DNA of 64,000 nucleotides from Ferruginibacter sp. (GCA_035317105.1 DATHHR010000149.1:172-64171), one strand, 5' to 3'. Positions 15,555-47,550 are shown, numbered from the stretch's first letter. Translations and numbers: made by a program. Notes: generated by a model from the letters alone, not told the origin.

Positions 15555-15696
15555 TATCCACAACGTGTTGACTAATTTCCCCATTTATGGCTATAGTTTA
15601 CAGCATTTGAAGTGGAAAATACTGGCAGGGTATTTTCGGTAATTAACTGATATATAACCCTTGATGGATGAGGGTATTACGAGAAAATTAACATTT

Positions 15697-17079: not shown

Positions 17080-17084
17080 TAAAA

Positions 17085-17178
17085 GACGACCGACTACCAA
17101 CGACTGACCACCGCATCAAACTATATGATTCCACATAATTGTATGGTTTACGGTTGTCAGTCGTTGGTAGTTGGTCGT
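17085..17178. repeat. Long imperfect inverted repeat between convergent genes (REP-like / bidirectional terminator)
   Basis: Arms of about 27 nt, gacgaccgactaccaacgactgaccacc versus ggttgtcagtcgttggtagttggtcgt, separated by a loop of about 38 nt. Confidence 0.6.
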
Positions 17179-17183
17179 TATAT

Positions 17184-18609: not shown

Positions 18610-21600
18610 TTACTCATATACCAATGTTTTTGTTGGTTGTATTTCAGTATTGCTGATCAGCTTAAATGTATTGCCATCTTGTTCAACACCATTAACGATA
18701 ATTTTAATTATAGTACCGTCGTTATTTTTTGTTTGTGTTAATTCGATATGATAAACTGTTTCTGCAAATTGGTAATCAATTTTTACAGATCCCCATTCTG
18801 CCGGAATGCATGGATTGAACTGAAGCGTATTGCCTTCTCGCTTTAACCCGATAAACGATTCTATGATCATCTGGTACATCCATCCTGCGGAGCCGGTATA
18901 CCATGTCCAGCCACCACGGCCCTTATGCAGCGGCTGTGCGTAAACATCAGCTGCTATCACATACGGTTCTACTTTGTATTCAGTGATCGATGCAACATCG
19001 TTTCCATGATTGATAGGGTTGATCATTTGTAACAGATCCCAAGTTTGTTGTTTATCTCCAATTTCTGCGAATGCCATTATCAACCAAACTGCAGCATGTG
19101 TGTATTGTCCGCCGTTTTCCCTTACACCAGGTACGTAACCTTTAATATAGCCAGGGTTTAAAGTCCCTTTATCAAATGGCGGCGTAAAGAGCTGAATTAT
19201 TTTATCTTCTTTTTTAACAAGATACTTACTCGCTGATCCCATGGCTTGTAAGGAGCGTTTTGGATCGCCTGCTTTTGATAATACAGACCAGCTTTGTGCA
19301 ATGGAATCAATTTTACATTCATCATTTTCTTTAGCGCCTAAAGGCGTGCCATCATCAAAATACGCACGGCGATACCACTCGCCATCCCAGGCATTTTCAT
19401 TTATGTTGATGCGTAATTTTTCTGCTTCTTCTTTACATCTTTCAGCAAAGGCTGTATCTTTTTTTATTTCTGCTACTGCAACAAATTTTGTGAGGATATC
19501 ATATAAAAAGAAGGCTAACCAAACACTTTCACCTTTTCCATGATTACCAACCCTGTCCATTCCATCATTCCAATCGCCGGTGCCGATAAAGGGTAAGCCA
19601 TGCTCGCCAAATTTTAATCCGTGTTCAATTGCTTTTACGCAGTGATCATATAAACTAGATTCCTGACTGGATCTTAACGGAAGGTCATAATAAGATTCTT
19701 CGCCTTCGTTCAATAAACGGCCTTCTAAAAAGTGAACTGATTCATCTAGTATACTACTATCTTTTGTTACAGTGATATATTTATTCAATACAAATGGCAA
19801 CCATAAAAAATCATCCGAGCAGGTTGTGCGAACGCCTCTGCCGATCGGCGGATGCCACCAGTGTTGCGCATCACCTTCTTTAAATTGCCTGGAGGCAGAT
19901 AAAATAATTTGTTCACGTACCAGCGCAGGATCATTGTGCAATAAGGATAATACATCCTGCAATTGATCCCTAAACCCGAATGCACCGCCCGATTGATAGA
20001 AACCGCTGCGTCCCCAAATGCGTGAAGCAAGTGTTTGATAATTTAACCAGCCATTGGCCATAATATTTACAGCAGCGTCTGGCGTTTCAATTTTTACAAC
20101 ACCTAAAGTTTTTTGCCAATATTGTGTAACATTTGCTAAAGCCGTTTTAGCAGTAGCACGACCTTTAAATTTATTTATCGTGCTCAAGGCTTCGCTCATA
20201 TTTAAACCTGCACCAAGTCGGAAAATAATTTCGCGTTCGCCTTCTTCAGGTAAATCAAAAGCTGTTTGTAATACAGTGCAGGGGTCAAGGGCAGCGCCAA
20301 GTTTCCCTGATAACTTTGCCCTGTTCATTCCATCAGGGTTGCTTAGTGTTCCATTGCGCCCAATAAATTCCGTTCTGTCTGTTGTGTAAGTTTTGCTTAA
20401 ATCATCTACATCAAAAAACGCTACCCTGCCTTCAAATTCTGTGTTGTAAGGGTTTGTTGCAAGGATGGCTCCGCTTTCAGTATCTATCTCTGTATTGATA
20501 TGCATCAACGATTTTGCCCGCAGGTCACTCAATACCCATTCAATATATCCTGTTGCAGAAATGCGGCGATCTCTCTTTGAGTTATTTTTTAATTTTAAAA
20601 CGATAAATTTAACGGGCGCTTTAATATCAACATACACGGTCATTTCAGAATCGATACCATCTTCGCTGTGTTCAAATATGCTGTACCCAAATCCATGTCT
20701 TGTAATATAGGGCGATTGTCTACGGCATGGGAGTGGAGCGGGCGACCAGAATTTTCCGCTTTCTTCATCCCTTAAATAAAATGCTTCGCCTTTTAGATCG
20801 ATGATAGAATCATTGTTCCATGGTGTTAAACGGAATTCATGTGCATTCTCTAACCAACTGTATGACTGTCCGCTTTCAGAAATGATGCAGCCAAAATTTG
20901 GATTGGCTAATACATTCACCCATGGCGCCGGTGTTGCTTGTGATGGTGTGGTTGTAATAACATACTCTTTTCCATCTTGTGAAAAGCCACCAATGCCGTT
21001 GAAGAACTGCAGGTTTGTTTTTGGCGCTATAGATGTTGTAACAGATGCATGGAATTTTGTTGGACTGAAATATGGAATAGTAGATTTCAGTTTATTTCTT
21101 CTGTTCATCTGGTCTTCCAAAGATCCAAACCTGTCTGATATAACAATATGTGCCACTGTTTGAAATAATATCCTATCCTCGTTTGATATCTGATCCGAAG
21201 AGCGGATATAAATGCCACCTTGCTGATCTTTTGCATCAACCATACTTGGCGCAACCATGCTGATGATATCATTGTGCAGCACTTGTCTGTAGCCTCCATG
21301 ATCTTCGTTCCAAATTACCAGATCAACCAATACACCTTTTAAACGCCAGTAAGCATGCGCTTGTACCATTTGTTTTACCAATTCAATATTGGCGGCATCT
21401 TCGATCTGTAATAATATTATTGGAAGATCACCGGAAATGGAATAACTCCATAAAGCAGATTGTCCGCGGCGATTTTTTACAATGATCGATGTGTCTGCCC
21501 TTAAAGAGGCGTTAGCAAATATTACTGAGCTGGCAAGCCTTGCATACAATTGCGCATCTGCTTCTGTGGCATTGATCTGTCTTAAAATTACCTGGCTATG

Positions 21601-24600
21601 TGTCCATGCTAATTCAAGTACCCTGTTAGTCAAATGCCTGTCCTGGTATTTTTCGATCAGGCTATTGCATATTTCTCTTGTGTCACCCATGCCATAGATC
21701 ATATCTATGGTCACTGTTTCATGTGGTTCGATAACTATTCTGTATTGGATAGAAACAATAGGATCAAGTACAGCGCCTTCATTTCCTGAAAGCTCATCTT
21801 CCTGTTTCATCACTTTCGGACCACTCATTGAATTGCCTCTGCCGATGAATTGTAGCCGGTCTGTTTCGTAAGCAATATTTTTAATTTCAGCATCATGCAC
21901 TTTCATCAGGTGAAACATAAATGGTGTGGCTTCTTCAGCACGCGGACGGCGCGTACAAATAATAGCATGGCGCTGTTTGTTTACTTCTGTCTGTACAAAT
22001 AAATTGCTGAAAGCAGGATGCGCTTCATCTGCATTTGCCGGTGCTAATACAACTTCTGCATAGCTGGTAATTTCGATCGTTCTTCTTTTGCGGGAGCGGT
22101 TGTTGATATGTACCCTTCTTAATTCAATATCATCTTCGGGAGATACAACAATTTCAGTATGTGTTTCAAGCGACATATCCCTGCGGCGGAATTCTGCACG
22201 GCCCTGAGAAAAAACTGCTTCGTAATTTTCGCCTTGTTGTAAAGTTGGATGATAGGCAGATGACCAGAATATATTATTATCCAGGTCACGGATATAACAG
22301 AAAGTGCCCCAGTTATCACAAGTGGCATCTTCGCGCCAGCGGGTAACGGCAATGTTTTTCCATTTGCTGTAACCACCGCCAGCATTCGTTATCATGGAGT
22401 GATACCTGCCGTTAGACAATAATTGCACTTCAGGCGTAGTGGTATGCGGCGTATTAATTACACGCATAGATGTATCGCTACCCGCAGGCACTACATTAAT
22501 ATCCGATGCGTGCACACTTGGAGAATAGAATGTGGTGATCCTTGGTATTCTCTCTTGCAATAATAATAGTGCAGATTTTATTTGTACTTCCGATTCAAAT
22601 CTTTTTTGCATTGGCTGGTTATGGACCAAATAGCTTATCGATAAAAAGCTCATGCCCTGATGGTGCGCCATGAATGATCGTACAACAGAACTTGTTTGTC
22701 TTCTTAATAAACGGGCTGCTGTATAATCGATAGCTTCGTAAAAACCATATTTACTTTCAAAGCCCGCTTCTTTTAATACCTGTAAATTTTTGTAAGCATC
22801 TTCAGGTGCTACCATCAATGCCATGATAGACGCGTATGGGGCAATAACAGTATCTTCTCCAAGGCCACGTTTAAATCCTAAACCCGGAACACCGAACGCC
22901 TTGTATTGATAATTCAATTGTGCGTCCACCATATTATAACCAGATTCAGAAATCCCCCAGGGCACACCTCGTTTTTTTGCGTAATCAATTTGTTTTTGAA
23001 CAACAGCAAGATTGGTTTGTTCCAACAAAGTATTGGCATAGGTTGGCATCACTAAATTTGGCATCAGGTATTCAAACATAGAGCCGCTCCAGGAAAGAAG
23101 AATAGGTGTAGTACCTAAATTGGTTAATTGCCTGCCTAAAGCAAACCAGCTTTCCTGTGGTAATTTTCCTTGTGCAATCGCAACAAAAGTGGTGAGCCTT
23201 GCTTCTGATGCTAACAGGTCATAATAACTATTGTCTTTTCTTTGTTCGTCAACATTGTAGCCTATCGTTAATAAATGTTGCGATCTGTCATACAGAAAAT
23301 CATAATCAATATTTGACAGATCAGCACATTTTACTGCGAGCTGATCTAGGGTTAATATCATTTCTTTTGCGCGCCTTCCTGATTCTGTAATGCTTTCTCT
23401 AAGGTTAGTTAACCAATCATTTTCTTCGGGTGTATTTTCAGAAGAATAGCATTGAATTATTTTATGTAATAAAAGCTGTTCGATCCTTGATAATTCTTTT
23501 AAGGAAGGAACAAGCGGTAATTCCGGAATCAGCAGATCGAATTTTTTTGGAACAGGAGGTAGTAATAACCATGGTGCCAATGAGGCTAATTCATATTTGA
23601 TGTTTTTTATTTGTATGGATATTTTTTCTGCCCACCAATCATCTTCGTTATCCGGATCAAGATCGAGGTTGACCAGTATTTCAGTAAAAACTGTATCTAA
23701 TTTATCAATGTATTTTTTTGTTTCTGTCAGGCTATTTGTTTCTGCAGGGTAGGCGTCGATTATTTGCTGTAAGAATTTTTTGACATCAGATTTTTCTTTT
23801 GTTCTTTCTACCAGTATTCTCAATGTATCTATGATACCTTCAAAAGTATTGTCATTGATTATCTTTTTATCTGCGATAGATGATAATGCTTGTTTTAAAG
23901 TGATCAGGTGGCCGGTAAGGTTACCACTATCAACAGTAGAAATATATTTTGGATATAACGGCACCAAAGAAACCGTATCGTACCAATTGTATAAATGCCC
24001 CTGGTATCTTTCCATACGAAGCATTGTGCCTATCGTGTTGGAAGTGCGTTCAACCAATTTGCTGGTAGTGATATAACCGAAATCATGCGCGGTAATATTG
24101 GCTAGTAAGGATAAGCCGATATTCGTTGGTGATGTACGATGCGCCACTCTTTCAACCGGGTGCTCCTGGTAATTATCGGGTGGCAGCCAATTGTCTTCTT
24201 CGGTAACAAAAGTTTCGAAGAACGCCCAGATCCTTCTTGCCAATGTTCTTAGATAAATATTTTGATCTACAGAAAGATGATCTTCATATTTTGTGGTTGG
24301 TAAACTTACCAGCCATGCGATGCCTGGCGCCAATGCCCATAAAATTAATATCGGCGTAGCAATAACAAGCGCAAAGTGATTATAAAAACTTAAATAGAGA
24401 AACATGACCACAGCAAAGAAAGGTGCAAACCACATGCTTACATAAGCCTGGAAAATATTACGCTGATTGTTCTGTATACTGCTAAAAGGGTTCCACTGCA
24501 ATAAATTTTTTCTTGAAACAAATATTCTCCAAAGTGTACGAAAGATCGCGTCGTTATTTAAGTAGACCTCATAAGGCAAACAAATAAGATCGATCGCCTG

Positions 24601-27342
24601 TTGAATAAAATGATCCTTCCCTGCACGGACAGAAAAAACAAAATGTTGCGAGAACAGCACATCCGCAGGTTTTTTCCATAGATCCCAGATAAAATTTATA
24701 ATGCTTGGCGTAAGGATTATCAGCACAACAGCCGTATTCCAAAACATCGGCGAAGCAGAAAATATCCACCCATATAAGAACAACAATAAAAAAGAAACAG
24801 GCACAAGGCTTCTGCGGATATTATCAAAAATTTTCCATTTGGAAAGTAATGATAAAGGGTTCTTTACAAAACCTTTTGTTTGTGCCGGTACAAAAGGCAA
24901 TATCCAGGTAGCAATTTGCCAATCACCTCTTATCCATCTTTGGCGGCGTTGCATATCGGTGCTGTACCTCGAAGGGTATGCTTCATACAATTGTACATCG
25001 GTCACTAATCCTGCACGTGTATAAGATCCTTCTAACAGATCATGACTTAATATCCTGTTCTCAGGAAATACATTTGTCAATGTTTGCTCAAACATGGCTA
25101 CATCATAAATTCCCTTACCAACAAAAGAGCCTTCGTTGAACAGATCCTGGTAAACATCTGATATCGCTCTTGTGTACGGATCAGTACCAGGCTCATTTCC
25201 ATGGATCTTTGCATAGATCGAACTGCTTTCATCAGGCAAACTATTGGATACCCTTGGCTGAAGGATCGTATAGCCTTCCGTAACACGTTTTTTCTTTTCA
25301 GAATACAACGCATGATTTAAAGGATGCGCCATTGTGCCGACTAATTTCCAGGCAGTATCACGTGGTAATTGCGTATCCGTATCAAGCGTGATGATATATT
25401 TTACTTTGTTATAAATTTCTTCTTCCCCAACGATCATTAAAAAATTTTCTTTTCCTTCACCGTGTATCAACGAATTTAACTCGCCTAATTTTCCACGCTT
25501 GCGTTCGTAACCCATCCAGATCTTATCATACGCGTTCCATTTGCGCGGACGATGAAAAATAAAAAATGTATCATTTGTATCTCTGCCGTATTTTCTATTC
25601 AGGTCGTTGATCTTTGTTCTGGCTGCATGTAATAACTGTTCATCTTCAGGCAATGTTTCTTGCGAAGCATCTTTAAAATCTGTCAGTAAGGCAAAATATA
25701 AGTTAGCATCGCGGTTAGCTAAAAAACGTACTTCAATGCCTTCTATCAGATCATCCAGTCCGGGAAAGCTTGTCAGCATTGTTGGTATAACAACCAAGGT
25801 TCGGTATTCATCAGGAATACCTTTTGAAAAATCCATTCTTGGTAACAGGCAAGGCTTCGATAATTTAGTTGATGTCCAGTTTATCAATGATACGGCTAAC
25901 TGGCTCGTAGCAAATACCGATACAATGCCGAGTAATGCTAAGGCCCATCCAAATAATCCTTCGTAATAAGCTTCATTGATCAATATCTTTGATAAGATAG
26001 CGGATATTACAACAACACCACCCACATAAAAAAATAAGGGAATGCCATTAAAGATCCTTCCACATCTTTCCAGATTCGAAGACTTCATCTTCGCCATCTT
26101 CTCTGTTTTTCGCGATCCTTTGCCGATAAGGTAATAACCAACATGCGTTAAACGCAGATCGGAGCTTACATCAATATTTTCTTTTGCTAAGCCAATAGCC
26201 ATGGCTGCTATTTCCTGTTCGGAAAAATGACTTTTCTTAGCGATCTTTTCTACAGCATGACGATAATTATCGCGCGTATGGAAATCCATATTAGCGTAAA
26301 TATTATCGATATCATTTCGTAGCGTTGCTTCAACAATGCTGGTGGCTTCAACAAAGTCACGCCAGTCTGTTGTAGTTAAAAAACGCAGGCTGCTAATACT
26401 ATTGCTGATCGATACCTGGTCGGCAGCTTGTTTTTGGTTTTCCTGTTGAATTAATTCACTGCTCGTTAAACCATTTTCTGATAAACGTTGTTCTATCCAG
26501 TTAAGTGGAAGCGTAAGGGAATTTCCTTTTTCCTGTAAGCGCCTTGTCAATTCTGCGACAAAAGAACTATCCATAGGAGGATTAGACCTTGCCATATCGG
26601 CAATGATCAGTACAAGGTTTTTGGGGTCTTTTTCTGCTGTTTCTATCATTTCATCTGCCCAATAATTCGCTAAGGATTTGTTGGTGATATCTATTGATAT
26701 CTGGATAGATAACCTGCGCAAATTTTCTATCAACGCTAACCGGAGCATGATGGGGATCGCCCATAATTCTCCCAGCTTTAAAAAAGTGTTCGTTTGGTAG
26801 GCAGTTACAAAATTTAACAGACTTTTTATGTCCACACGCCCATCACTATGGGAAATAATTTCCACAGCTATATCATAAACTCTCGGTAAACCGATCGATT
26901 CCCCTTTCGATAATCGGGGTAATCCTTTACTATATCCTTTAGGTAAATGCTTTTTTCCGGTGTAGATATGTTCTTCTATCAAATAAAAATTATCCAATAG
27001 CCATTCTCCTGCAGGAACAATACGTGTGTTCTCTTTTATCGCTTCTGTTAATCGTGCATGAACTTCTAATAAGATGCTTTCATTCTCTGCCAGTCGTTTT
27101 AATAATTGTTCAGAAGGGTGTCCTGAAATGAGGGTATGTCTCCGTGCAAGCCCTTTGGCGTGCTGTTCCAGCTGTTCTTCGGTAAATATTTCCGATCTTA
27201 ACGGAGGCCTGTTATCAGCATATTTATTAGCGGCATCATCTCCAAAGAACGGCTCTATAATATTTTTTTTAAGTGCCGTAATAGCTTTTGGAAGCATTTC
27301 AAAAAGGTCTTTTTGCTGATTCTTTCTTTCCGGTGGCCTCAT
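18610..27342 (-). CDS. cgs: Cyclic beta-1,2-glucan synthase (ChvB/NdvB/Cgs type: GT84 + central region + GH94-like C-terminus)
   Basis: A single 2910-aa ORF, the size class of Cgs/NdvB. It has several TM segments and the GT motifs ITLDTDTQLPRD and QRRQRWIRGDWQ. The long C-terminal region reads as an (alpha/alpha)6 phosphorylase (GFRDQLQD, DWNDGMD, GGWTWYTGSAGWMY). Confidence 0.93.
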   Translation of the reverse strand: MRPPERKNQQKDLFEMLPKAITALKKNIIEPFFGDDAANKYADNRPPLRSEIFTEEQLEQHAKGLARRHTLISGHPSEQLLKRLAENESILLEVHARLTEAIKENTRIVPAGEWLLDNFYLIEEHIYTGKKHLPKGYSKGLPRLSKGESIGLPRVYDIAVEIISHSDGRVDIKSLLNFVTAYQTNTFLKLGELWAIPIMLRLALIENLRRLSIQISIDITNKSLANYWADEMIETAEKDPKNLVLIIADMARSNPPMDSSFVAELTRRLQEKGNSLTLPLNWIEQRLSENGLTSSELIQQENQKQAADQVSISNSISSLRFLTTTDWRDFVEATSIVEATLRNDIDNIYANMDFHTRDNYRHAVEKIAKKSHFSEQEIAAMAIGLAKENIDVSSDLRLTHVGYYLIGKGSRKTEKMAKMKSSNLERCGRIFNGIPLFFYVGGVVVISAILSKILINEAYYEGLFGWALALLGIVSVFATSQLAVSLINWTSTKLSKPCLLPRMDFSKGIPDEYRTLVVIPTMLTSFPGLDDLIEGIEVRFLANRDANLYFALLTDFKDASQETLPEDEQLLHAARTKINDLNRKYGRDTNDTFFIFHRPRKWNAYDKIWMGYERKRGKLGELNSLIHGEGKENFLMIVGEEEIYNKVKYIITLDTDTQLPRDTAWKLVGTMAHPLNHALYSEKKKRVTEGYTILQPRVSNSLPDESSSIYAKIHGNEPGTDPYTRAISDVYQDLFNEGSFVGKGIYDVAMFEQTLTNVFPENRILSHDLLEGSYTRAGLVTDVQLYEAYPSRYSTDMQRRQRWIRGDWQIATWILPFVPAQTKGFVKNPLSLLSKWKIFDNIRRSLVPVSFLLLFLYGWIFSASPMFWNTAVVLIILTPSIINFIWDLWKKPADVLFSQHFVFSVRAGKDHFIQQAIDLICLPYEVYLNNDAIFRTLWRIFVSRKNLLQWNPFSSIQNNQRNIFQAYVSMWFAPFFAVVMFLYLSFYNHFALVIATPILILWALAPGIAWLVSLPTTKYEDHLSVDQNIYLRTLARRIWAFFETFVTEEDNWLPPDNYQEHPVERVAHRTSPTNIGLSLLANITAHDFGYITTSKLVERTSNTIGTMLRMERYQGHLYNWYDTVSLVPLYPKYISTVDSGNLTGHLITLKQALSSIADKKIINDNTFEGIIDTLRILVERTKEKSDVKKFLQQIIDAYPAETNSLTETKKYIDKLDTVFTEILVNLDLDPDNEDDWWAEKISIQIKNIKYELASLAPWLLLPPVPKKFDLLIPELPLVPSLKELSRIEQLLLHKIIQCYSSENTPEENDWLTNLRESITESGRRAKEMILTLDQLAVKCADLSNIDYDFLYDRSQHLLTIGYNVDEQRKDNSYYDLLASEARLTTFVAIAQGKLPQESWFALGRQLTNLGTTPILLSWSGSMFEYLMPNLVMPTYANTLLEQTNLAVVQKQIDYAKKRGVPWGISESGYNMVDAQLNYQYKAFGVPGLGFKRGLGEDTVIAPYASIMALMVAPEDAYKNLQVLKEAGFESKYGFYEAIDYTAARLLRRQTSSVVRSFMAHHQGMSFLSISYLVHNQPMQKRFESEVQIKSALLLLQERIPRITTFYSPSVHASDINVVPAGSDTSMRVINTPHTTTPEVQLLSNGRYHSMITNAGGGYSKWKNIAVTRWREDATCDNWGTFCYIRDLDNNIFWSSAYHPTLQQGENYEAVFSQGRAEFRRRDMSLETHTEIVVSPEDDIELRRVHINNRSRKRRTIEITSYAEVVLAPANADEAHPAFSNLFVQTEVNKQRHAIICTRRPRAEEATPFMFHLMKVHDAEIKNIAYETDRLQFIGRGNSMSGPKVMKQEDELSGNEGAVLDPIVSIQYRIVIEPHETVTIDMIYGMGDTREICNSLIEKYQDRHLTNRVLELAWTHSQVILRQINATEADAQLYARLASSVIFANASLRADTSIIVKNRRGQSALWSYSISGDLPIILLQIEDAANIELVKQMVQAHAYWRLKGVLVDLVIWNEDHGGYRQVLHNDIISMVAPSMVDAKDQQGGIYIRSSDQISNEDRILFQTVAHIVISDRFGSLEDQMNRRNKLKSTIPYFSPTKFHASVTTSIAPKTNLQFFNGIGGFSQDGKEYVITTTPSQATPAPWVNVLANPNFGCIISESGQSYSWLENAHEFRLTPWNNDSIIDLKGEAFYLRDEESGKFWSPAPLPCRRQSPYITRHGFGYSIFEHSEDGIDSEMTVYVDIKAPVKFIVLKLKNNSKRDRRISATGYIEWVLSDLRAKSLMHINTEIDTESGAILATNPYNTEFEGRVAFFDVDDLSKTYTTDRTEFIGRNGTLSNPDGMNRAKLSGKLGAALDPCTVLQTAFDLPEEGEREIIFRLGAGLNMSEALSTINKFKGRATAKTALANVTQYWQKTLGVVKIETPDAAVNIMANGWLNYQTLASRIWGRSGFYQSGGAFGFRDQLQDVLSLLHNDPALVREQIILSASRQFKEGDAQHWWHPPIGRGVRTTCSDDFLWLPFVLNKYITVTKDSSILDESVHFLEGRLLNEGEESYYDLPLRSSQESSLYDHCVKAIEHGLKFGEHGLPFIGTGDWNDGMDRVGNHGKGESVWLAFFLYDILTKFVAVAEIKKDTAFAERCKEEAEKLRININENAWDGEWYRRAYFDDGTPLGAKENDECKIDSIAQSWSVLSKAGDPKRSLQAMGSASKYLVKKEDKIIQLFTPPFDKGTLNPGYIKGYVPGVRENGGQYTHAAVWLIMAFAEIGDKQQTWDLLQMINPINHGNDVASITEYKVEPYVIAADVYAQPLHKGRGGWTWYTGSAGWMYQMIIESFIGLKREGNTLQFNPCIPAEWGSVKIDYQFAETVYHIELTQTKNNDGTIIKIIVNGVEQDGNTFKLISNTEIQPTKTLVYE

Positions 27343-27593
27343 ATTCTGTTGAAATTTTTAGTTAGTTTGATATTGAATAGATCCCGATACGCTTATATAA
27401 AGTTTATCGGTATAGTAGTACCAATATCATGCCTTTATGAGGGAAAATATATTTAGCACATAATTTGCGTTAAAATCAATATTGCTTGAATTATAGGATC
27501 AATTTTAAAGAACAACAGTTTTTTCACATTAATTAAATGCGTAATTGGTTAAATTGAATCAACATCTACTAAAAACCGGTATAGAATAATATA

Positions 27594-30500
27594 ATGACAG
27601 ATCCCACTATAGCAACATTATCTAAACATAAGTATCAATTCCTATCTGGCGGTGGCGAAATGGGGGAATTAATGCGTACCAAAGACTGGTCTGATACACA
27701 CGTTGGTAACCCTGATCATTGGCCGCAAAGCTTACGTACAGCACTTAGTATTATTTTACATGCAAGGTCTCCCATGTTTTTATGGTGGGGATCAGAATTG
27801 ACTTGTTTTTATAATGACGCCTATCGTCCAAGTCTGGGTAATGATGGAAAGCATCCTGGAATTTTAGGAAAGCCTGCCGAAAAAGCGTGGACAGAAATAT
27901 GGCATATCATCAAGCCACTAATTGACCAGGTGTTAGCTGGTGGTGAAGCCCCTTATTTTGAAGATACTTTGGTTCCCATCTATCGCAATGGAAAGATTGA
28001 AGATGTTTACTGGACATTTAGCTTCAGTGCGGTAAGAGACGAATCCGGGAAGATCGGAGGTATATTTGTGAATTGTGTAGAAACAACTGATAAGGTTCTG
28101 AATGAGAAGAAAGTAATATATGGGGAGCAGAAATTTAAAAATCTTATAAATGAGTCTCCGATAGCAACGGCAGTTTTTACGGGTGAAGATTTTGTTGTTG
28201 AGCTGGCAAATGAAGAAGCGCTTAAGCTATGGGGCAAAAAAGAAAATGTATTGGGCAAAAAAATAATAGCGGCAATGCCGGAGTTGGAAGGGCAACCTTA
28301 TATGGACCTGCTTAAAAATGTTTATACTTCAGGAGAAACATATTATGGTAATGAAAACCTTGTACAGATAGAGGTTGATGGAAAAATAGTTCCTACCTAT
28401 GTGAATTTTATTTACAAGGCATTGCGTGACCCCGATGATAAGATCTATGGTATACTAACCATGGGGTATAATGTTACGGAACAGGTAGAGACCCGTAAAA
28501 AAATTGAGTATAGTAATGAAAATTCAAGGCTTGCAGTAGATACAGCCATGCTCGGAACAATAGATCTAACATGGCCCGAAAAAAAGTTTACCTGTTCAAA
28601 AAGGGTATACGAAATTTTCGGCTTTCCTGATAGCACACCCCCATACGAAGAATTGTTTAGCCATATTCATCCCGACGATATTCATATCAGAGAGGAAGCT
28701 AACAAGTTAGGTCGTGTTACGGGTAAGATCGATTATGAAGTACGCATTCTATGGCCAGATAAAACAATACATTGGATAACCGCCTATGGTAAAGTTTTTT
28801 ATGGAGAAGATAAAAACCCGGTTAGGGTATTAGCTACAATAAGAGATATCACAGACCAAAAGAATTTTTTAGATAATATTCAAATAAGCGAAAAGAAATT
28901 CCGCAACACCGTAACACAGGCACCTGTAGGGATAGCTATTTTACGGGGACGGGATTTTTTGGTAGAAATGGCCAATAAAAATTACCTGGAGCTTATTGAT
29001 AGAAAAGAAGAAGATTTTGTGGGGAAAAAATTATTTGATGTAATACCCGAAGTAAGAGAATCTGTAGAATCGTTACTTGTAAGTGTTATAGAAACAGGCA
29101 AAGAAGTTACTGCAACAGAATTTGCTATACCAGTTAAGCGAAAAGGTGTTGTAAATATTGGCTATTTTAATTTTGCATACCAGGCGCTTCGCGAAGAAGA
29201 CAATACTATATCAGGTGTCATTGTAACTGTCAATGAGGTTACTTCTTTAGTGAAGGGCAAATATTTATTGGCAGAGAGTGAAAGACAATTCCGTAATGTG
29301 ATCATGCAATCCCCAATTCCTATGACGATCTTTAGAGGAGAGGACCATATTATCGAAATGGCAAATACAGAGATGTTTACAAATATTTGGCGTAAGGAAG
29401 AAAAAGACGTTATCGGTAAAAGATTATTTGATGTATTTCCTGAGTTGAAAGATCAAAAATATCCTCCTTTATTAAAAAATGTATTAAGTACAGGACAACC
29501 TTACAGAGAAAAAGAATCAGTAGTATACATACAAGGTGACGATGGCTTGAAGAAATTCTATTTGGATTATGAATATTCTCCTTTATTAGAAACAGACGGG
29601 ACTATTTCAGGAATAATGATTACTGTAAATGATGTGACCCAAAGGGTAATGGCCAAACAAAAAATAGAAATTGAAGAAGCTCGTTTGCGTTTAGCCATTG
29701 AAGGAACGAAATTAGCCACCTGGGATCTTAATCTTGAAACAAAAAGCATTATTCACTCGCCAAGATTGGCGGAAATTTTTGGCCACCCTTTAACAACGCA
29801 GATCACGCACCAGCATATGCGTGATCAGATCCATCCCGATGATAGACAAAGCATTGTTGAACGGGCTTTTGATATGGCGATGGAAACAGGTTATTATAAT
29901 TATGAAGCCCGTGTTGTAAGGCCCGATAAAACTATTGGCTGGATAAAAACGCAGGGCAAAGTAATGTATGATGAGCAGGGCACTCCAATAAGATTGATCG
30001 GAACGCTGGCTGATACTACAGAAAATAAAATTGCAGAAGAAAAAGTGGCCATGCTTGCCGCGATCGTGGAATCTTCTGAAGATGTCATTATCAGTAAAAC
30101 ATTGGATGGTATCATAACAAGCTGGAATGCGGGGGCGCAAAGAGTTTTTGGATACGAAGGCGCAGAGATCATCGGACAACATATTACAAAGCTTATTCCG
30201 TTGGATCGTTTTGATGAAGAGCCTCAAATTTTACGGCGCATTCAACATGGAGAAAGCGTTGACCATTTTGAAACACAAAGAATAACTAAAGAAGGGAACT
30301 TACTTGATATATCCTTAACTATTTCACCCATCAAGGATACGGCCGGAAATATTATAGGGGCATCAAAGATCGCCCGTGATATTACCAAACAAAAACAAAT
30401 AGAAAGGCTTGTTGCAGAAAGCGAGCTTCGGTTAAACATAGCCATTCAGGCTGCTGAATTGGGCACCTGGGAATTCGATATAAAAAATCAGCAGGCTATT

Positions 30501-32219
30501 TATTCTTCAAGGTACCTCGAGATATTTGGTTATAAGGATAGCGAAGAGCCGTCTCATAACTCATTACTTGAACGAATTCATCGGGATGACCTTGATATGC
30601 GTAATAAGGCTTTACAAGATGCAATTGAAAGCGGATTCCTGAACCTGGAAATGCGTATTGTAACAATTGCAAATGACCTGCGTTGGATACAGGCAAAGGG
30701 AAAAGTATTTTACGATGATAATAATATTGCTACCAAAATAATGGGAACAATAATGGATGTCACCGATGAAAGACAGGCGGAATTAGCCATAAGAGAAAGT
30801 GAAGGAAAATTCCGTTTACTTTCTGATGCCATGCCACAGTTCATATGGACAAGCGACCCTCAGGGAAATCTGATCTATTTTAATCAGGCTGTATATGATT
30901 ATTCCGGCTTAACAGAAGAAGAAGCGATGAACGGTGGTTGGGTTCAAATTATTCATCCTGATGATAAACAAGAAAATATTAAAAAATGGATGCATTCGAT
31001 CACAACAGGAGAAGATTTTGTTTTTGAACACCGGTTTAGAAAATATAACGGAGAGTACAGGTGGCAACTGAGCAGAGCCATTCCTCACAGAGACAGCAGC
31101 GGTAATATCCAAATGTGGATAGGTACCAGTACTGATATTCACGATAGTAAATTATACAGCGATAAATTGCAAAAGAGCGAATTGTTATTTAAAACAATTT
31201 CAAATGCACCGCCGGTTGGTTTATGGATGACGGATAATAAAGGACAAAATGTTTTCGTAAACCAAACCTGGATCAATTGGACAGGAATGCCATTAGAAGA
31301 ACATTATGGTCAGGGATGGTTAAGCCGTGTTGTGGAAGAAGATAAAGCTGCAGTACCTTCTTTTGAGAATGCCATGAAGAGAAGAGAAAAATATACAACA
31401 GAATTCAGATTGCTAAAGCCCGACAATGAAATACGCTGGTGCCTTATCGAAGGATATCCTTTTTATAATATGGATGGAGAGTTTGAAGGATATGCGGGCT
31501 CTGTTACAGATATTACTGATATAAAAAAACTGGAGCAACAAAAAGATTTCTTTATCAGCATGGCCAGCCATGAATTAAAAACACCTATCACCTCTATAAA
31601 AGGATATGTGCAGATATTGTTGAGTATGCACAAGGATAGTCCCGATACTTTTTTAAAGAGTTCACTTACAACAGTAAACAAACAAATAGGGACATTGACG
31701 AAACTGATCGCAGACCTGTTAGATATGTCGAAAATAAAATCCGGCAATCTTCAGTTAAACAAAGAAGAATTTTCTATGAATGAAATGATCCGGGAAACGA
31801 TCGATGAAATAAAACATACACAACCAGGGCATGATATTATGTTTACCCCGGAAAGAGAAAGCGTAGTGTATGCAGATAGATTAAGGATCGCACAGGTATT
31901 GATCAATTTCCTGACAAACGCTATTAAATATTCTCCACATTTTAATATGGTTACGGTTAAGGTTAGTATCGTGGAAAATAACGTAATAGTAGCAGTAATA
32001 GATTCTGGGATAGGAATAAATAAGAATGACCAGGAAAAAATATTCCAGCGTTTTTATCGTGTAGAAGGGAAAGATGAAAAAACTTTTCCGGGTTTTGGAA
32101 TTGGTTTATTTATTGCATCAGAAATTATTCAAAGGCATAATGGAAAAATAGGAGTAGAAAGTGAACCGGGTAAAGGATCGGTTTTCTCTTTTTCACTGCC
32201 ATTGGAAGATAAATTATAA
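27594..32219 (+). CDS. Cytoplasmic multi-PAS sensor histidine kinase (about ten PAS/PAC modules)
   Basis: 1541 aa with no TM segment. It shows a repeated PAS pattern (E.(K/R)FR..... and W....G), the H-box MASHELKTPITSIKGY and an HATPase_c domain (DSGIGI, GFGIGL). Confidence 0.95.
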   Translation: MTDPTIATLSKHKYQFLSGGGEMGELMRTKDWSDTHVGNPDHWPQSLRTALSIILHARSPMFLWWGSELTCFYNDAYRPSLGNDGKHPGILGKPAEKAWTEIWHIIKPLIDQVLAGGEAPYFEDTLVPIYRNGKIEDVYWTFSFSAVRDESGKIGGIFVNCVETTDKVLNEKKVIYGEQKFKNLINESPIATAVFTGEDFVVELANEEALKLWGKKENVLGKKIIAAMPELEGQPYMDLLKNVYTSGETYYGNENLVQIEVDGKIVPTYVNFIYKALRDPDDKIYGILTMGYNVTEQVETRKKIEYSNENSRLAVDTAMLGTIDLTWPEKKFTCSKRVYEIFGFPDSTPPYEELFSHIHPDDIHIREEANKLGRVTGKIDYEVRILWPDKTIHWITAYGKVFYGEDKNPVRVLATIRDITDQKNFLDNIQISEKKFRNTVTQAPVGIAILRGRDFLVEMANKNYLELIDRKEEDFVGKKLFDVIPEVRESVESLLVSVIETGKEVTATEFAIPVKRKGVVNIGYFNFAYQALREEDNTISGVIVTVNEVTSLVKGKYLLAESERQFRNVIMQSPIPMTIFRGEDHIIEMANTEMFTNIWRKEEKDVIGKRLFDVFPELKDQKYPPLLKNVLSTGQPYREKESVVYIQGDDGLKKFYLDYEYSPLLETDGTISGIMITVNDVTQRVMAKQKIEIEEARLRLAIEGTKLATWDLNLETKSIIHSPRLAEIFGHPLTTQITHQHMRDQIHPDDRQSIVERAFDMAMETGYYNYEARVVRPDKTIGWIKTQGKVMYDEQGTPIRLIGTLADTTENKIAEEKVAMLAAIVESSEDVIISKTLDGIITSWNAGAQRVFGYEGAEIIGQHITKLIPLDRFDEEPQILRRIQHGESVDHFETQRITKEGNLLDISLTISPIKDTAGNIIGASKIARDITKQKQIERLVAESELRLNIAIQAAELGTWEFDIKNQQAIYSSRYLEIFGYKDSEEPSHNSLLERIHRDDLDMRNKALQDAIESGFLNLEMRIVTIANDLRWIQAKGKVFYDDNNIATKIMGTIMDVTDERQAELAIRESEGKFRLLSDAMPQFIWTSDPQGNLIYFNQAVYDYSGLTEEEAMNGGWVQIIHPDDKQENIKKWMHSITTGEDFVFEHRFRKYNGEYRWQLSRAIPHRDSSGNIQMWIGTSTDIHDSKLYSDKLQKSELLFKTISNAPPVGLWMTDNKGQNVFVNQTWINWTGMPLEEHYGQGWLSRVVEEDKAAVPSFENAMKRREKYTTEFRLLKPDNEIRWCLIEGYPFYNMDGEFEGYAGSVTDITDIKKLEQQKDFFISMASHELKTPITSIKGYVQILLSMHKDSPDTFLKSSLTTVNKQIGTLTKLIADLLDMSKIKSGNLQLNKEEFSMNEMIRETIDEIKHTQPGHDIMFTPERESVVYADRLRIAQVLINFLTNAIKYSPHFNMVTVKVSIVENNVIVAVIDSGIGINKNDQEKIFQRFYRVEGKDEKTFPGFGIGLFIASEIIQRHNGKIGVESEPGKGSVFSFSLPLEDKL

Positions 32220-32232
32220 AATTTGCTTGTAT

Positions 32233-32613
32233 ATGAATCCTATAATCTTGGTCATTGACGACAATGAAGATATTCTCTTCATGTTAAAAGCTATGCTGCA
32301 ATTAAAAGAGTACAAAGTGTATACTAAAGAAACTGCCGAGAACATTGAAGCTTATATTGAACAACTAGCGCCAAATATTATTTTAATGGATATGCTATTA
32401 TCAGGCGCTGATGGCTGCGAAGTTTGTAAAAGCATTAAAACAAACAGCGCTATATCATCTATACAGGTAATAATGATGTCCGCATTACCTAGTGCAAAAG
32501 AAATGTGTCTTGAAGCAGGCGCCAATTATTTTGTTGGCAAACCTTTTGAAATGACAGATCTTTTTTATACTGTTTCGAATGCATTAGCAAAAAGCGAAAT
32601 GGGGGCAATATAA
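32233..32613 (+). CDS. Stand-alone response-regulator receiver
   Basis: The ATG lies 13 nt after the kinase stop. Contains ILVIDDNEDI, ILMDMLLSGADG and GKPF. Confidence 0.85.
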   Translation: MNPIILVIDDNEDILFMLKAMLQLKEYKVYTKETAENIEAYIEQLAPNIILMDMLLSGADGCEVCKSIKTNSAISSIQVIMMSALPSAKEMCLEAGANYFVGKPFEMTDLFYTVSNALAKSEMGAI

Positions 32614-32637
32614 ATTTCACCCGTAAACAACACTACT

Positions 32638-34071
32638 ATGGGCGATACTTTTATTTGCGATGTTGCAGGTAGCACAGAACCCTTTCCTCATTTTTGGGAA
32701 CATACAGTAGGGAGCTGCCACGCCACCATGGCGCTTCGGGCAGATTGGCAAAAACAATTATTGCGCTGCCACAAAGAATTAGGTTTTCAACATGTTCGTT
32801 TTCATGGCCTGCTTTCAGATGATATGGGCACTTTGATGAATGAGATGGATCAATTGGTCTACTCGTTTTTTAATGCTGACCAGATCTGTGATTTTTTATT
32901 GTCTATTGGCATGAAACCATTTATGGAATTGTCCTTTATGCCATCCGCGCTTTCTTCCGGCAATGATATTGTTTTTCATTATAAAGGAAATATAACACCT
33001 CCAAGAGATTATAATGCCTGGGCAACACTGATAAATAAATTAGTGCAGCACTGGGTTACAAGATATGGGATAGAAGAAGTGAGTAAATGGTTCTTCGAAA
33101 TTTGGAACGAACCTAATCTTTCTGCATTCTGGACCGGCACACAACAAGATTATTTTAATTTATACCAGCATTCTGCCAAAGCGATCAAAGATGTAAATAC
33201 TTTATTGCGGGTAGGAGGCCCCGCAACTGCCGATAATGCCTGGATAAATGAGTTTGTAATTTTTTGTGAAAACAATGCAGTGCCATACGATTTTATTTCT
33301 ACGCACCATTACCCCACAGATGCTTTTGGAAAACCGGGCGATGATACGATCAGTGAGTTAGCTGCCAGCCGGCGAAGCGTATTGCGGGAAGAAGTTATTG
33401 AAACAAAAAAACAGGCAAAGGGCAAACCTGTTTATTATACCGAATGGAGCACCTCATCCAATCCGTTCGATGATCTGCATGATAAACCATATGCTGCTGC
33501 TTTCATAACAAAAACGATCATGGAAGCACACGGACAAGTAGAAGGGTATAGCTACTGGACCTTCTCTGATATTTTTGAAGAAAATTATTTTTCTTCTGTT
33601 CCTTTTCACGGAGGCTTTGGCTTATTAAATATTTATGGTGTGCCAAAACCTGCTTATCGTGCCTATCAATTATTACATCGCCTGGGAAATAATATTTTAA
33701 AAGTAGACGGGCAGCATGAAACGGTAGATGTATGGGTTGTTGAAAATAAAAGCATGATCAATATCGTACTCACGAATTTTTCACTACCCCTTCATCCTGT
33801 AAAAACTGAAGTAATAAAAATTCAGCTGAACAATATCCAACAAGTAAAAGAAGTATTTATTGAACGGATAGATGATACACATGCTAATACAAGACAAGCC
33901 TGGATCGAAATGGGTAGGCCGGATAGCTTACAACCCGAACAGGTAGCAACCTTAGAAACTATTTCTACGTTAGTTAAAGAATCACTGTTATTTAAATTTG
34001 AAAATAATACTGTTATAATGGAAGTTCAATTGCTTCCACAAGCAGCCGCATTGATAACAATAGAAATGTAA
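32638..34071 (+). CDS. GH39-family glycoside hydrolase (beta-xylosidase-like fold), no signal peptide
   Basis: 477 aa. Contains PHFWEHTVGSCHATMALRADWQ and VRFHGLL. The acid/base motif is FEIWNEPN and the nucleophile motif is VYYTEWSTS. Confidence 0.85.
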   Translation: MGDTFICDVAGSTEPFPHFWEHTVGSCHATMALRADWQKQLLRCHKELGFQHVRFHGLLSDDMGTLMNEMDQLVYSFFNADQICDFLLSIGMKPFMELSFMPSALSSGNDIVFHYKGNITPPRDYNAWATLINKLVQHWVTRYGIEEVSKWFFEIWNEPNLSAFWTGTQQDYFNLYQHSAKAIKDVNTLLRVGGPATADNAWINEFVIFCENNAVPYDFISTHHYPTDAFGKPGDDTISELAASRRSVLREEVIETKKQAKGKPVYYTEWSTSSNPFDDLHDKPYAAAFITKTIMEAHGQVEGYSYWTFSDIFEENYFSSVPFHGGFGLLNIYGVPKPAYRAYQLLHRLGNNILKVDGQHETVDVWVVENKSMINIVLTNFSLPLHPVKTEVIKIQLNNIQQVKEVFIERIDDTHANTRQAWIEMGRPDSLQPEQVATLETISTLVKESLLFKFENNTVIMEVQLLPQAAALITIEM

Positions 34072-35396
34072 TGATCGAAGAAAAGAAAATAGCATCACAG
34101 ACCGACAGGGAAATGCTCAATAGTTTACAACGTGAAACATTTGATTATTTTGTTCATCAGGTTGACCCTGTAACTGGATTGACGGTTGATAAAACACAGC
34201 CGGGTTTCCCTTCAAGCATTGCTGTGGTAGGTATGGGTATTGCATCCTATATCGCAGGCATTCATAAAAATTTTATTTCAAGAACAGATGCAGCACAAAG
34301 AATAGTAAAAACATTGCGCTTTTTTTACAACAGCCATCAGGGGCCTGAGCCAGATGCAACAGGATACAAAGGGTTCTATTATCATTTTATTGAAATGAGT
34401 ACCGGTAAACGTTGTTGGGAATGCGAGCTATCAACCGTTGATACTACTTTTTTAATTGCAGGGGCTTTGTGTGCCGCTAATTATTTTACTGATGATACAG
34501 AAACTGAAAAAGAGATAAGAAATTTAGCCGATCTTTTATATCGCCGTGTAGATTGGCAATGGGCGTTAAACGGTGCTACAACTATAAGTCATGGCTGGAG
34601 GCCAGAAACAGGTTTTCTTCCATTTCACTGGGGTGAAGATTATAGCGAAGCCATGTTGATGTATATGTTAGCATTGGCTTCGCCAACTTTTCCTATTGAT
34701 AAAAAAGGATATGACGATTGGACAGCTTCATTCAAATTAAGAACAGCATATAACTTTACCTATTTATATGCGGGCCCTTTATTTATTCACCAGTTCTCAC
34801 ACATGTGGATCGACTTTCGAAATATTTTCGATCGTTTTAATAAAGAATCAGGATTTGATTATTTTGAAAACAGCAAACGTGCAACACATGTTCATCGCGA
34901 ATATGCCATTGATAACCCAATGGGCTTTGCCTGTTATGGGCCTAATTGCTGGGGACTTACTGCTAGTGATGGCCCGGGACCGGCGTTGTTAAAAATAGCG
35001 GATAAGGAATTTACATTTTACGATTACATCGCCAGAGGCGCACCGTTTGGTCCTGATGATGGAACGATATCACCCTGGGGCGTTGTAGCTTCGTTGCCTT
35101 TTGCACCCGAAATTGTAATTGATACGATACGGCATGCCATTGAAAAGCTCGAATTAAAACACCATCGGTTATATGGATTTGATGCAAGCTTTAATCCCAC
35201 ATATCCAGACACATCCAATAATAAAAATGGCTGGGTATCGCCGTGGAGATTTGGGTTGAATCAGGGCCCCATCGTTATCATGATAGAAAATTATCAGACA
35301 GAACTTATCTGGAAAATAATGAAGCAGTGTACGTATTTAGTTAATGGTTTGCGCATAGCCGGTTTTACCGGCGGTTGGCTGAATGAGATAAAATAG
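34071..35396 (+). CDS. Glucoamylase-like (alpha/alpha)6 protein of the PF10091 / GH144 (endo-beta-1,2-glucanase) type, no signal peptide
   Basis: 441 aa. Its start overlaps the GH39 stop (TAATG). Motifs recalled from the family: SSIAVVGMGIASY, GFYYHF, DTTFLIAGAL and GWRPETGF...YSEAMLMYMLALASPT. The family call needs an HMM check. Confidence 0.65.
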   Translation: MIEEKKIASQTDREMLNSLQRETFDYFVHQVDPVTGLTVDKTQPGFPSSIAVVGMGIASYIAGIHKNFISRTDAAQRIVKTLRFFYNSHQGPEPDATGYKGFYYHFIEMSTGKRCWECELSTVDTTFLIAGALCAANYFTDDTETEKEIRNLADLLYRRVDWQWALNGATTISHGWRPETGFLPFHWGEDYSEAMLMYMLALASPTFPIDKKGYDDWTASFKLRTAYNFTYLYAGPLFIHQFSHMWIDFRNIFDRFNKESGFDYFENSKRATHVHREYAIDNPMGFACYGPNCWGLTASDGPGPALLKIADKEFTFYDYIARGAPFGPDDGTISPWGVVASLPFAPEIVIDTIRHAIEKLELKHHRLYGFDASFNPTYPDTSNNKNGWVSPWRFGLNQGPIVIMIENYQTELIWKIMKQCTYLVNGLRIAGFTGGWLNEIK

Positions 35397-35454
35397 ATCG
35401 TTGGCATCATAATTGTTTTTATTGTTCCATCTATTAATCATTAAAACAATTGTT

Positions 35455-35667
35455 ATGAAACCAATAGCTATTATTCTGATCGTACTCGGAATTGCCATGT
35501 TAGTATTTAAGGGCTTTAGTTACACGCAGGAAAAAAATGTTGCGGATATCGGCCCGGTAGAAATAAATAAGACAGAACATAAAACTGTTGATTGGCCGAT
35601 ATATGCAGGTGTGATCGCATTGCTTGCAGGCGGCGCACTTTTAATGGCAGATCGTAAAACGGTATAG
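35455..35667 (+). CDS. Small two-TM membrane protein (70 aa)
   Basis: MKPIAIILIVLGIAMLVF ... WPIYAGVIALLAGGALLMA. It is the last gene before the terminator. Start placed at the internal ATG. Confidence 0.6.
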   Translation: MKPIAIILIVLGIAMLVFKGFSYTQEKNVADIGPVEINKTEHKTVDWPIYAGVIALLAGGALLMADRKTV

Positions 35668-35685
35668 AACATCAATATTTATTTG

Positions 35686-35721
35686 TGCAGAAATTTATGT
35701 TAAATAGATTTCTGCATTTTT
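35686..35721 (+). terminator. Rho-independent terminator of the kinase/hydrolase operon
   Basis: 9-bp stem tgcagaaat/atttctgca followed by tttttat. Confidence 0.65.
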
Positions 35722-46875: not shown

Positions 46876-47253
46876 TTAGATGCTTAATTCCCTATGATGC
46901 ACATAGACAATTTTAGTCTTGTCGATCTCAACCCTTGCATCTTTTATGATATTTTTTAAAATAAAATCTACTTCTTGTTTACTTCTTGCAAATCGGCAGG
47001 AATCATTCGTTCCAAAATCTATTTCCGACATCCTTACAGTAACATCAACATTATGTCGTAAATGTTCAATTATTACTTCATACTTATTAGGATCTAGTTT
47101 TTTTAAATAAGATCGCAATTCTTTAACCAGTCGCTTTAAAGATTTAAGACAGCCACCTAAATCATTTAATTCGTACACATAGTTATTGAATATCTCTAAT
47201 TGAGATGGTAGATTTTCTGTTGTTTTTTTCATAATAGTGTTTGGATAATTCAA
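46876..47253 (-). CDS. Orphan hypothetical protein
   Basis: 125-aa ORF in an AT-rich gap between core genes. No family recognised and the coding status is uncertain. Confidence 0.5.
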   Translation of the reverse strand: MNYPNTIMKKTTENLPSQLEIFNNYVYELNDLGGCLKSLKRLVKELRSYLKKLDPNKYEVIIEHLRHNVDVTVRMSEIDFGTNDSCRFARSKQEVDFILKNIIKDARVEIDKTKIVYVHHRELSI

Positions 47254-47550
47254 TTGTAATATAAAAATAAATTCAATATGCTCTTTTACCGTTCATATAA
47301 AAGAAAGGGCTGTATCTGCAGTCCCCGGTATTGCTAAATTTAGCAAATAGGGTGCCAGCTACAAACAAACAGAGATCTGTAGAAACAGATCTCGCCTAAT
47401 TATTTTTTATCGACCAGCATAGCCGGCACAAATGTAGATAGTAACTATCCTTTTGTATATATAATACCGTGTTTTTTACACCATTTATTCTGTTGTTTTT
47501 CTTATTTCTATATTACCGGCCACTTTTACTATCATTAAACATAGGTCAAA

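Follow-up and report, generated by a model that had tools for sequence, protein, structure and literature searches.

A synthase gene for cyclic beta-1,2-glucan in Ferruginibacter and the predicted cytoplasmic glycosidases encoded beside it

What is known of cyclic beta-1,2-glucans comes mainly from alpha-proteobacteria, where these molecules, periplasmic or secreted, act as osmoprotectants and in the interaction with hosts. No publication deals with their role in the Bacteroidota, yet their synthase, Cgs, is common in the Chitinophagaceae. What becomes of the glucan in these bacteria is a question raised in concrete form by a 64,000-nucleotide stretch of DNA from Ferruginibacter sp. (GCA_035317105.1, DATHHR010000149.1:172-64171; hereafter, the window). 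This stretch carries a cgs gene and, diverging from it, a run of genes for a multi-PAS histidine kinase, a receiver, two glycoside hydrolases of families GH39 and GH144, and a small membrane protein. The original prediction, made by a model from the sequence, read the locus as a previously undescribed module for the synthesis and intracellular turnover of beta-1,2-glucan under PAS-sensor control. Its gene order and spacings are reproduced by our map of open reading frames (ORFs), with all coordinates agreeing, and its assignment of the host to the Bacteroidota is borne out by a type IX secretion system (T9SS) sorting tail on the next gene and by the nearest relatives of the synthase. In our analysis the two hydrolase genes form a cassette of their own that has come to lie beside cgs in more than one clade, and we judge the chances about evenly poised that this cassette breaks down, in the cytoplasm, a glucan that the cell itself has made.

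The synthase and the two hydrolases

The cgs product was predicted to have the ChvB/NdvB/Cgs architecture, and this assignment stands. The protein aligns collinearly and over its full length with the cryo-EM structures of Agrobacterium tumefaciens Cgs (8RF0/8RF9; E=0, 2050 bits), the best stretch being residues 1344-2855 and the glycosyltransferase region aligning separately, and it also matches the cyclase domain of the Thermoanaerobacter italicus enzyme (TiCGS, 8WY1; E=2e-136). By Pfam, it contains a GH94 catalytic domain, two stretches of GH94 supersandwich and, internally, PF10091. Published functional residues were mapped onto the window proteins through HMMER alignments, and by this mapping all known catalytic residues of Cgs are conserved, namely those of the GT84 transferase, the primer tyrosine, the GH189 cyclase and the GH94 phosphorylase (Table 1); each module therefore looks competent. 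The two motifs quoted in the original prediction were located as well, DTDTQLPRD at residue 654 and QRRQRWIRGDWQ at residue 798, the latter representing the Q(R/Q)xRW motif. A simple Kyte-Doolittle scan, in place of a dedicated predictor, indicates about six transmembrane (TM) helices in three pairs, with hydropathy peaks at 437-487, 845-888 and 963-1008, and in the solved A. tumefaciens homologue the soluble domains all face the cytoplasm (PMC10901819). The nearest relatives, at 88-89% identity, come from two Ferruginibacter metagenome-assembled genomes (MAGs). Its sequence places the window synthase in the Cgs family without difficulty, as a new member from a phylum in which that family is unstudied. 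The earlier description of this architecture as one characterised in alpha-proteobacteria needs correction, since the T. italicus cyclase domain has meanwhile been characterised (PMC10834661).

The identity of the 441-residue hydrolase is similarly secure. It matches PF10091 at E=4e-74, and its best solved relative is XcSGL of Xanthomonas campestris (XCC2207, 8XUL; E=1e-106), a biochemically characterised GH144 beta-1,2-glucanase (PMC12102758). CpSGL of Chitinophaga pinensis (5GZH) follows at E=2e-45, and PgSGL3, from another family of the SGL clan, reaches only E=6e-7, so that the predicted placement in PF10091/GH144 is upheld. Key residues are intact: E193 corresponds to the catalytic acid E239 of XcSGL, F238 to F286 and Y319 to Y367, and D124 is an acidic candidate for the base at the position of CpSGL E142. 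These correspondences use an offset of 14 between the 8XUL chain index and the published numbering, validated on F286 and Y367 (PMC12102758); the 8XUL crystal itself has Q at the E239 position. Characterised members of GH144 are, to date, specific for beta-1,2-glucan (PMC12102758), and we accordingly regard the protein as a GH144 endo-beta-1,2-glucanase homologue with beta-1,2-glucan as its putative substrate. The acid, base candidate, Phe and Tyr are common to XcSGL, CpSGL and the window protein (PMC12102758); the two characterised enzymes, however, carry signal peptides and act outside the cytoplasm, whereas the subfamily of the window protein is uniformly signal-less and paired with GH39. 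An identical database record, "glucoamylase family protein [Ferruginibacter sp.]", is unstudied.

The 477-residue enzyme was called GH39-like, and rightly so: it matches PF01229 at E=2e-137 and has the catalytic Glu pair, E158 in the acid/base motif NEP and E269 in the nucleophile motif TE, invariant across 18 orthologues. The protein resembles intracellular XynB-type beta-xylosidases (E=3e-91) and has in common with GsXynB1, TsXynB and XacXynB the fold, the Glu pair, a predicted intracellular site and a near-identical -1 pocket, in which nearly all of the residues listed for XacXynB are invariant across the 18 cassette orthologues (PMC7242879). On the +1 side, by contrast, the equivalent of Tyr284 is Ser274 in all 18. 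Further changes in the cassette subfamily are W270 and H224, both fixed, and H114, which takes the aromatic position equivalent to F118 in 15 of the 18; the XynB-type residue set of XacXynB and CcXynB, -1 and +1 together, is thus incomplete (PMC7242879). Because of the exchanges of Tyr284 for Ser274 and of F118 for His114, we do not file the protein as a xylosidase; the alignment describes an enzyme whose sugar pocket appears xylosidase-like and whose aglycone side appears remodelled. Its gene context, moreover, is one of beta-1,2-glucan and not of xylan. CmGH1, a GH39 beta-glucosidase, is a distant relative (E=1e-8).

Both hydrolases were said to lack a signal peptide, and this applies well beyond the window. 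A hydropathy scan finds no N-terminal hydrophobic segment in the window GH39 or GH144 proteins, nor in the full-length orthologues of either (about 40 in the case of GH144). No signal peptide is hidden upstream, because the N-termini reported by the ORF finder are already the longest that the frames allow. The two enzymes are thus predicted to be cytoplasmic.

Distribution of the arrangement

To view the upstream side of cgs without bias, we searched one genome per species with the N-terminal third of Cgs as the query. Of the 160 species-level genomes hit, 80 loci were kept (numbered from L001), and their neighbours were identified by tblastn and ORF clustering; most are from Chitinophagaceae, with a few from Cyclobacteriaceae, one from an Omnitrophota MAG and several from Bacillota. 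Synteny of the five genes across the Chitinophagales, the conservation of which had been put forward as a check, is confined to very close relatives. The full kinase-receiver-GH39-GH144-TM70 set (TM70 being the 70-residue membrane protein) diverges from cgs in the two closest, L001 and L002, and a reverse search of metagenome contigs with GH144 as the query returned it again in L081-L086. In the Ferruginibacter paludis clade (L003-L005, L007-L009, L013 and L014; about 70% Cgs identity), only the kinase and receiver genes are divergent to cgs and no hydrolase gene lies beside it; a DUF2911 protein follows the receiver, except in L013, where the contig ends within the kinase gene. The Hanamia/Ginsengibacter clade (L043, L052, L069 and L070; about 55% identity) has GH39-GH144 upstream of cgs on the same strand, with a phosphoglucomutase gene between, and partial traces of this layout occur in L047 and L025. 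Most of the 80 loci have none of kinase, receiver, GH39 or GH144 adjacent, and custom hidden Markov models for divergent GH144 and GH39 genes near cgs that BLAST might have missed returned fragments only. The adjacency of synthase and hydrolase genes therefore holds for two clades, in differing orientation, and not as a generally conserved feature.

What is conserved is the hydrolase pair itself. GH39 and GH144 are tightly joined, with overlaps of 1-4 nucleotides, in at least 20 loci, and in 10 of the loci found with GH144, which reach down to about 55% identity, there is no cgs within 10 kb of the pair (L088, L091-L093, L096, L102, L103, L109, L115 and L121). On three long contigs, including that of the isolate Ginsengibacter hankyongi, the neighbours of the pair are unrelated housekeeping genes, and no SusC/D pair, oligosaccharide importer or GH3 gene was found near the stand-alone copies in the loci examined. 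GH39-GH144 is, as such, an autonomous two-gene cassette, always signal-less, widespread in the Chitinophagaceae and usually distant from cgs, and the apparent operon of the window is a composite of two modules, kinase-receiver and GH39-GH144. In a neighbour-joining tree of GH144 (computed without bootstrap), lineages that are not adjacent to cgs separate the two groups that are; the tree therefore implies that the juxtaposition either arose independently at least twice or was lost repeatedly. GH39 is fragmented in several MAGs (L002, 2472-3907; L084, 7241-8676; L043, 1901-2290; L069 and L070), and in L070 both GH144 and cgs are split too, either because long-read assemblies carry frameshift errors or because the cassette is decaying.

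The surroundings of cgs in other genomes offer some metabolic context. The Hanamia clade has cgs at the end of a series of genes on one strand, for phosphoketolase, class-I aldolase, a sugar MFS transporter, in places GH39-GH144, glucose-6-phosphate dehydrogenase, 6-phosphogluconolactonase and phosphoglucomutase, to which some loci add an aquaporin-type MIP protein and a P-type ATPase. Carbohydrate-flux neighbours of this kind, in varying sets, lie upstream of cgs in L044-L046, L052, L054, L069 and L075, and in the Bacillota MAG L071 the gene directly upstream of cgs (8088-9233) encodes a mechanosensitive channel of the MscS type. Such neighbours point weakly to glucose-phosphate flux and osmotic adaptation.

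An exporter was sought among all ORFs of the window and of the 80 loci by Walker A and ABC signature motifs, and across the window by Pfam as well. No fused ABC exporter (ABC_membrane plus ABC_tran) is present in the whole 64-kb window, where Pfam finds only MlaEFD and the sole ABC ATPase is MlaF (10302-11087), and the 10-kb flanks of cgs are free of a ChvA-type exporter in all 80 loci. The absence of an exporter that had been noted is thus a true statement about the window and about these 10-kb flanks, and is not one about the genome. In Brucella, cgt is likewise not known to adjoin cgs. As a possible exporter we considered a protein of about 548 residues whose gene directly precedes cgs in 10 loci, and dismissed it, as it is phosphoglucomutase. 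The sole recurrent membrane protein near cgs is of the BrkB/YihY family, encoded directly upstream of cgs in L033, L037, L038 and L040, found also in L042 and L059, and represented in the window at 40105-41085 (minus strand), 4.4 kb from the operon.

Layout, regulators and control region

Table 1. Features of the locus and mapped functional residues of Cgs.
Feature	Position	Strand	Details
cgs (synthase of cyclic beta-1,2-glucan, Cgs)	18610-27342	-	2910 aa
Divergent spacer between cgs and kinase gene	27343-27593		251 bp
Soluble multi-PAS histidine kinase	27594-32219	+	1541 aa
Stand-alone CheY-like receiver	32233-32613	+	126 aa; ATG at 32233; 13-nt gap after kinase
GH39 retaining exo-glycosidase, predicted cytoplasmic, substrate presumptive	32638-34071	+	477 aa; 24-nt gap
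GH144 endo-beta-1,2-glucanase homologue, predicted cytoplasmic	34071-35396	+	441 aa; 1-nt overlap with GH39
Two-TM membrane protein	35455-35667	+	70 aa; TM segments predicted
Intrinsic-terminator-like hairpin	35685-35717	+	14-bp stem, then T run to 35727; closes operon
Sigma54-dependent response regulator	15661-17079	+	receiver, AAA+ and HTH_8 by Pfam
Cgs, GT84 residues	D654/D656/D768		reference D624/D626/D739 (PMC10901819)
Cgs, primer tyrosine	Y723		A. tumefaciens Y694; conserved G-x-D-P-Y context (PMC10901819)
Cgs, GH189 nucleophile	E1466		TiCGS E1442 (PMC10834661)
Cgs, GH189 acid/base and supporting residues	E1380/E1424/H1560-H1561		TiCGS E1356/E1400/H1536-H1537; spacing identical to 8WY1 (PMC10834661)
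Cgs, GH94 phosphorylase residues	D2459/D2593		reference D2393/D2528

The genes on the plus strand are presumably co-transcribed, up to the hairpin and T run that confirm the terminator expected after the 70-residue gene. The longest receiver ORF opens at a GTG at 32161, overlapping the kinase gene, and we judged the ATG to be the sensible start. The two-TM protein has tblastn matches only in close relatives (L001, L002, L081 and L083-L087).

The kinase was described as having roughly ten PAS domains. A multi-PAS kinase it is, with eight PAS stretches detected (TIGR00229) and a protein length that leaves room for about ten, followed by HisKA and HATPase_c (E=9e-28); it has no TM segment and no LOV motif. 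The pair has the marks of a two-component system, the kinase having HATPase_c and a single H-box, HELKTP, with its histidine at 1326, and the receiver (PF00072, E=3e-20) having D9/D10, the phospho-acceptor D53 and the K-P motif in its translation. Pfam gives PF00072 only for the receiver, and no DNA-binding or enzymatic output domain is found in its 126 residues. Because of this, it is conjecture that the PAS kinase controls transcription. Regulation by the kinase-receiver pair is nonetheless plausible because of the operon structure and the conserved pairing with cgs: besides the window, 16 loci have a kinase orthologue divergent to cgs (L001-L005, L007-L009, L013, L014 and L081-L086), and the receiver follows the kinase in every one of them. 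Of the PAS-sensor control first proposed, then, the association of the kinase-receiver pair with cgs is a fact of the map, and the control itself is an inference from it. A transcriptional output of the kind wanting in the operon receiver may be provided by the sigma54-dependent regulator (Table 1), whose family recurs no more than 10 kb from cgs in about ten loci (among them L001, L003, L005, L007, L011, L028, L030, L036 and L057), often with a small stand-alone receiver. Kinase length varies among close relatives, from 1541 residues in the window to about 1164 in L002, L082 and L084 and about 1060-1110 in the F. paludis clade (L003-L014), and differs by hundreds of residues even at 83-88% C-terminal identity, a pattern suggesting that the sensor array has gained and lost PAS units.

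Within the divergent spacer, an intergenic alignment shows two blocks that are kept in the F. paludis clade as well as in the window clade, the rest being unalignable. Block 1 spans 27418-27440, with the invariant core AATATCATGCC at 27423-27433, and block 2 spans 27453-27468, with the core AGCACATAATTTG at 27455-27467. Block 2 (27454-27468) was tried as a sigma54 promoter and rejected: it has a single mismatch, but this falls in the -24 GG (AG), and the window holds no excess of such matches. No Rfam element (riboswitch or known RNA) was found in the control region. One locus in the intergenic comparison has a 4-kb spacer. An exact sigma54 consensus, TGGCACCCTATTTGC, lies elsewhere in the window at 47343-47357 (minus strand), about 90 nucleotides upstream of a 125-residue ORF (46876-47253) that has no Pfam match.

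Further features of the window touch the locus less directly. Downstream of the operon, 35827-40029 (plus strand) encodes a 1400-residue T9SS-secreted protein with CBM6, CBM35, CBM9 and He_PIG repeats; its G+C content is 0.43, against 0.35-0.39 around it, and it is kept in this position only in close relatives. We considered it as a part of the system and handle it as unrelated because its N-terminus is only faintly GH99/GH71-like. Between two convergent genes, a near-perfect hairpin of about 100 nucleotides (17082-17182) gives a sub-threshold match to a miRNA-precursor model on both strands and is probably a bidirectional terminator. Two large ORFs have no Pfam match, one of 707 residues at 373-2496 (plus strand; at E<=1e-3) and one of 1271 residues at 58993-62808 (minus strand; at E<=1e-5).

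Fate of the glucan and known systems

How might synthase and cassette work together? By homology with the A. tumefaciens enzyme, Cgs would prime on its tyrosine and elongate the chain from UDP-glucose, then trim it with phosphate, freeing glucose-1-phosphate, and cyclise it, each step at the cytoplasmic face of the inner membrane. The signal-less GH144 enzyme would cut cyclic or linear beta-1,2-glucan to sophoro-oligosaccharides, which GH39, translationally coupled to it, would finish to monosaccharide; this sugar and the GH94-derived glucose-1-phosphate would re-enter central metabolism. The purpose could be to mobilise a cytoplasmic glucan pool, held as a reserve or an osmolyte, or to clear unexported or aberrant chains, and transcription of the hydrolase genes would be tied to the soluble multi-PAS kinase and its single-domain receiver through the control region shared with cgs. 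A functional link to an endogenous glucan is supported because the cassette lies by cgs in two clades and glucose-phosphate genes accompany it in the Hanamia clade. A bolder version, which we consider improbable as a whole, is a glycogen-like cytoplasmic cycle of the Chitinophagaceae in which a Cgs glucan that is not exported would be opened by GH144 and finished by GH39 as the first beta-1,2-glucosidase of its family, with flux through phosphoglucomutase to the pentose-phosphate and phosphoketolase routes and the balance set by the PAS kinase.

Several observations weigh against endogenous synthesis with cytoplasmic breakdown. GH39-GH144 adjoins cgs in only about 8 of the 80 species-level loci, most copies of the cassette are far from cgs, and no pairing of cgs with hydrolases occurs in the Bacillota loci examined, where cgs has genes for MscS, a PGI-like protein, a helicase and the like around it. 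The -1 pocket of GH39 hardly differs from that of beta-xylosidases, so that a beta-glucosidase activity of this enzyme is putative. An exporter may, moreover, be encoded elsewhere in the genome, leaving little glucan in the cytoplasm.

The scarcity of cgs-linked copies would be expected if the cassette finished exogenous sophoro-oligosaccharides, cut outside the cell from the extracellular beta-1,2-glucan of neighbouring bacteria and then imported, its adjacency to cgs reflecting shared regulation or chance. Signal-less beta-1,2-glucanases, such as PgSGL1 and PgSGL2, do occur in catabolic clusters (PMC12102758), and a sugar MFS transporter is encoded just upstream of GH39 in L052 and L070. That transporter, however, is of the monosaccharide-type Sugar_tr family, the loci examined show neither a SusC/D pair nor an ABC oligosaccharide importer nor a secreted glucanase with the cassette, and two independent juxtapositions with cgs are hard to ascribe to chance; we think this import route unlikely. 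The rarity of cgs adjacency would also suit the absence of any functional link, GH39 being an ordinary intracellular beta-xylosidase, as its -1 residues would allow, GH144 acting on some other substrate, and the neighbourhood of cgs being fortuitous. This we regard as quite improbable, given the strict, translationally coupled pairing of the two genes over a wide range of identity, the beta-1,2-glucan specificity of characterised GH144 enzymes (PMC12102758), the repeated recruitment beside cgs and the +1 exchange of Tyr for Ser in all 18 cassette members.

A different role for the same enzymes would be quality control of the synthase, in which the glucanase clears stalled, over-long or uncyclised chains, much as BcsZ, AlgL and PslG serve their own synthases, and the finished glucan leaves by a transporter encoded elsewhere. 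Hydrolases beside polysaccharide synthases are a recurrent theme, and both enzymes here are predicted to be cytoplasmic, which is also where Cgs synthesis proceeds on a covalently tethered primer (PMC10901819). Yet the cassette is mostly absent near cgs and cgs mostly absent near cassettes, the Hanamia-clade context looks like carbon flux and not repair, and an exo-glycosidase partner would be needless for unblocking; quality control is accordingly a rather unlikely account.

Endogenous synthesis with cytoplasmic breakdown, should it hold, would bear on how free-living soil and freshwater Bacteroidota use the glucan, and in particular on whether it serves them as a reserve or an osmolyte. It also raises the question of a new beta-1,2-specific activity within GH39. 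A cytoplasmic beta-1,2-glucanase that has repeatedly been recruited beside the synthase gives a handle on the fate of the glucan at the cytoplasmic side, and cultured isolates exist for such work in Ferruginibacter paludis (cgs with kinase-receiver) and Ginsengibacter hankyongi (cassette). The claim that the arrangement had not been described agrees with our literature searches, which found no matching system and, specifically, no account of Cgs in the Bacteroidota, no GH39 partner for beta-1,2-glucanases and no cgs-linked cytoplasmic hydrolase cassette.

Set against known systems, the locus combines familiar parts in an unfamiliar way. With the ChvB/NdvB/Cgs proteins of Agrobacterium, Sinorhizobium and Brucella, the window synthase shares the full architecture, the catalytic residues and six TM segments. 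It differs in its Bacteroidota host, in having no ABC exporter or succinyl-modifying gene nearby, and in being flanked instead by genes for a soluble PAS kinase, a receiver and predicted cytoplasmic glycosidases. The catabolic clusters of Listeria (lin1839-1841), Streptomyces (SGR_2422-2427) and Photobacterium gaetbulicola combine, like the window pair, an endo-glucanase with an exo-acting beta-glucosidase or phosphorylase, and some of their glucanases are signal-less as is the window GH144 (PMC12102758, PMC12369401). They have ABC importers, however, and exo enzymes of GH3, GH1 or GH94, whereas the window has no importer nearby, a GH39 enzyme and a synthase for a neighbour. The logic of encoding degradation by synthesis is found, by analogy, in the BcsZ, AlgL and PslG operons and in the glycogen glg operons, PslG being itself a GH39 protein (PMC6933502). 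BcsZ, AlgL and PslG are periplasmic and the glg system handles an alpha-glucan, whereas the window hydrolases are predicted to be cytoplasmic and to act on a beta-1,2-glucan.

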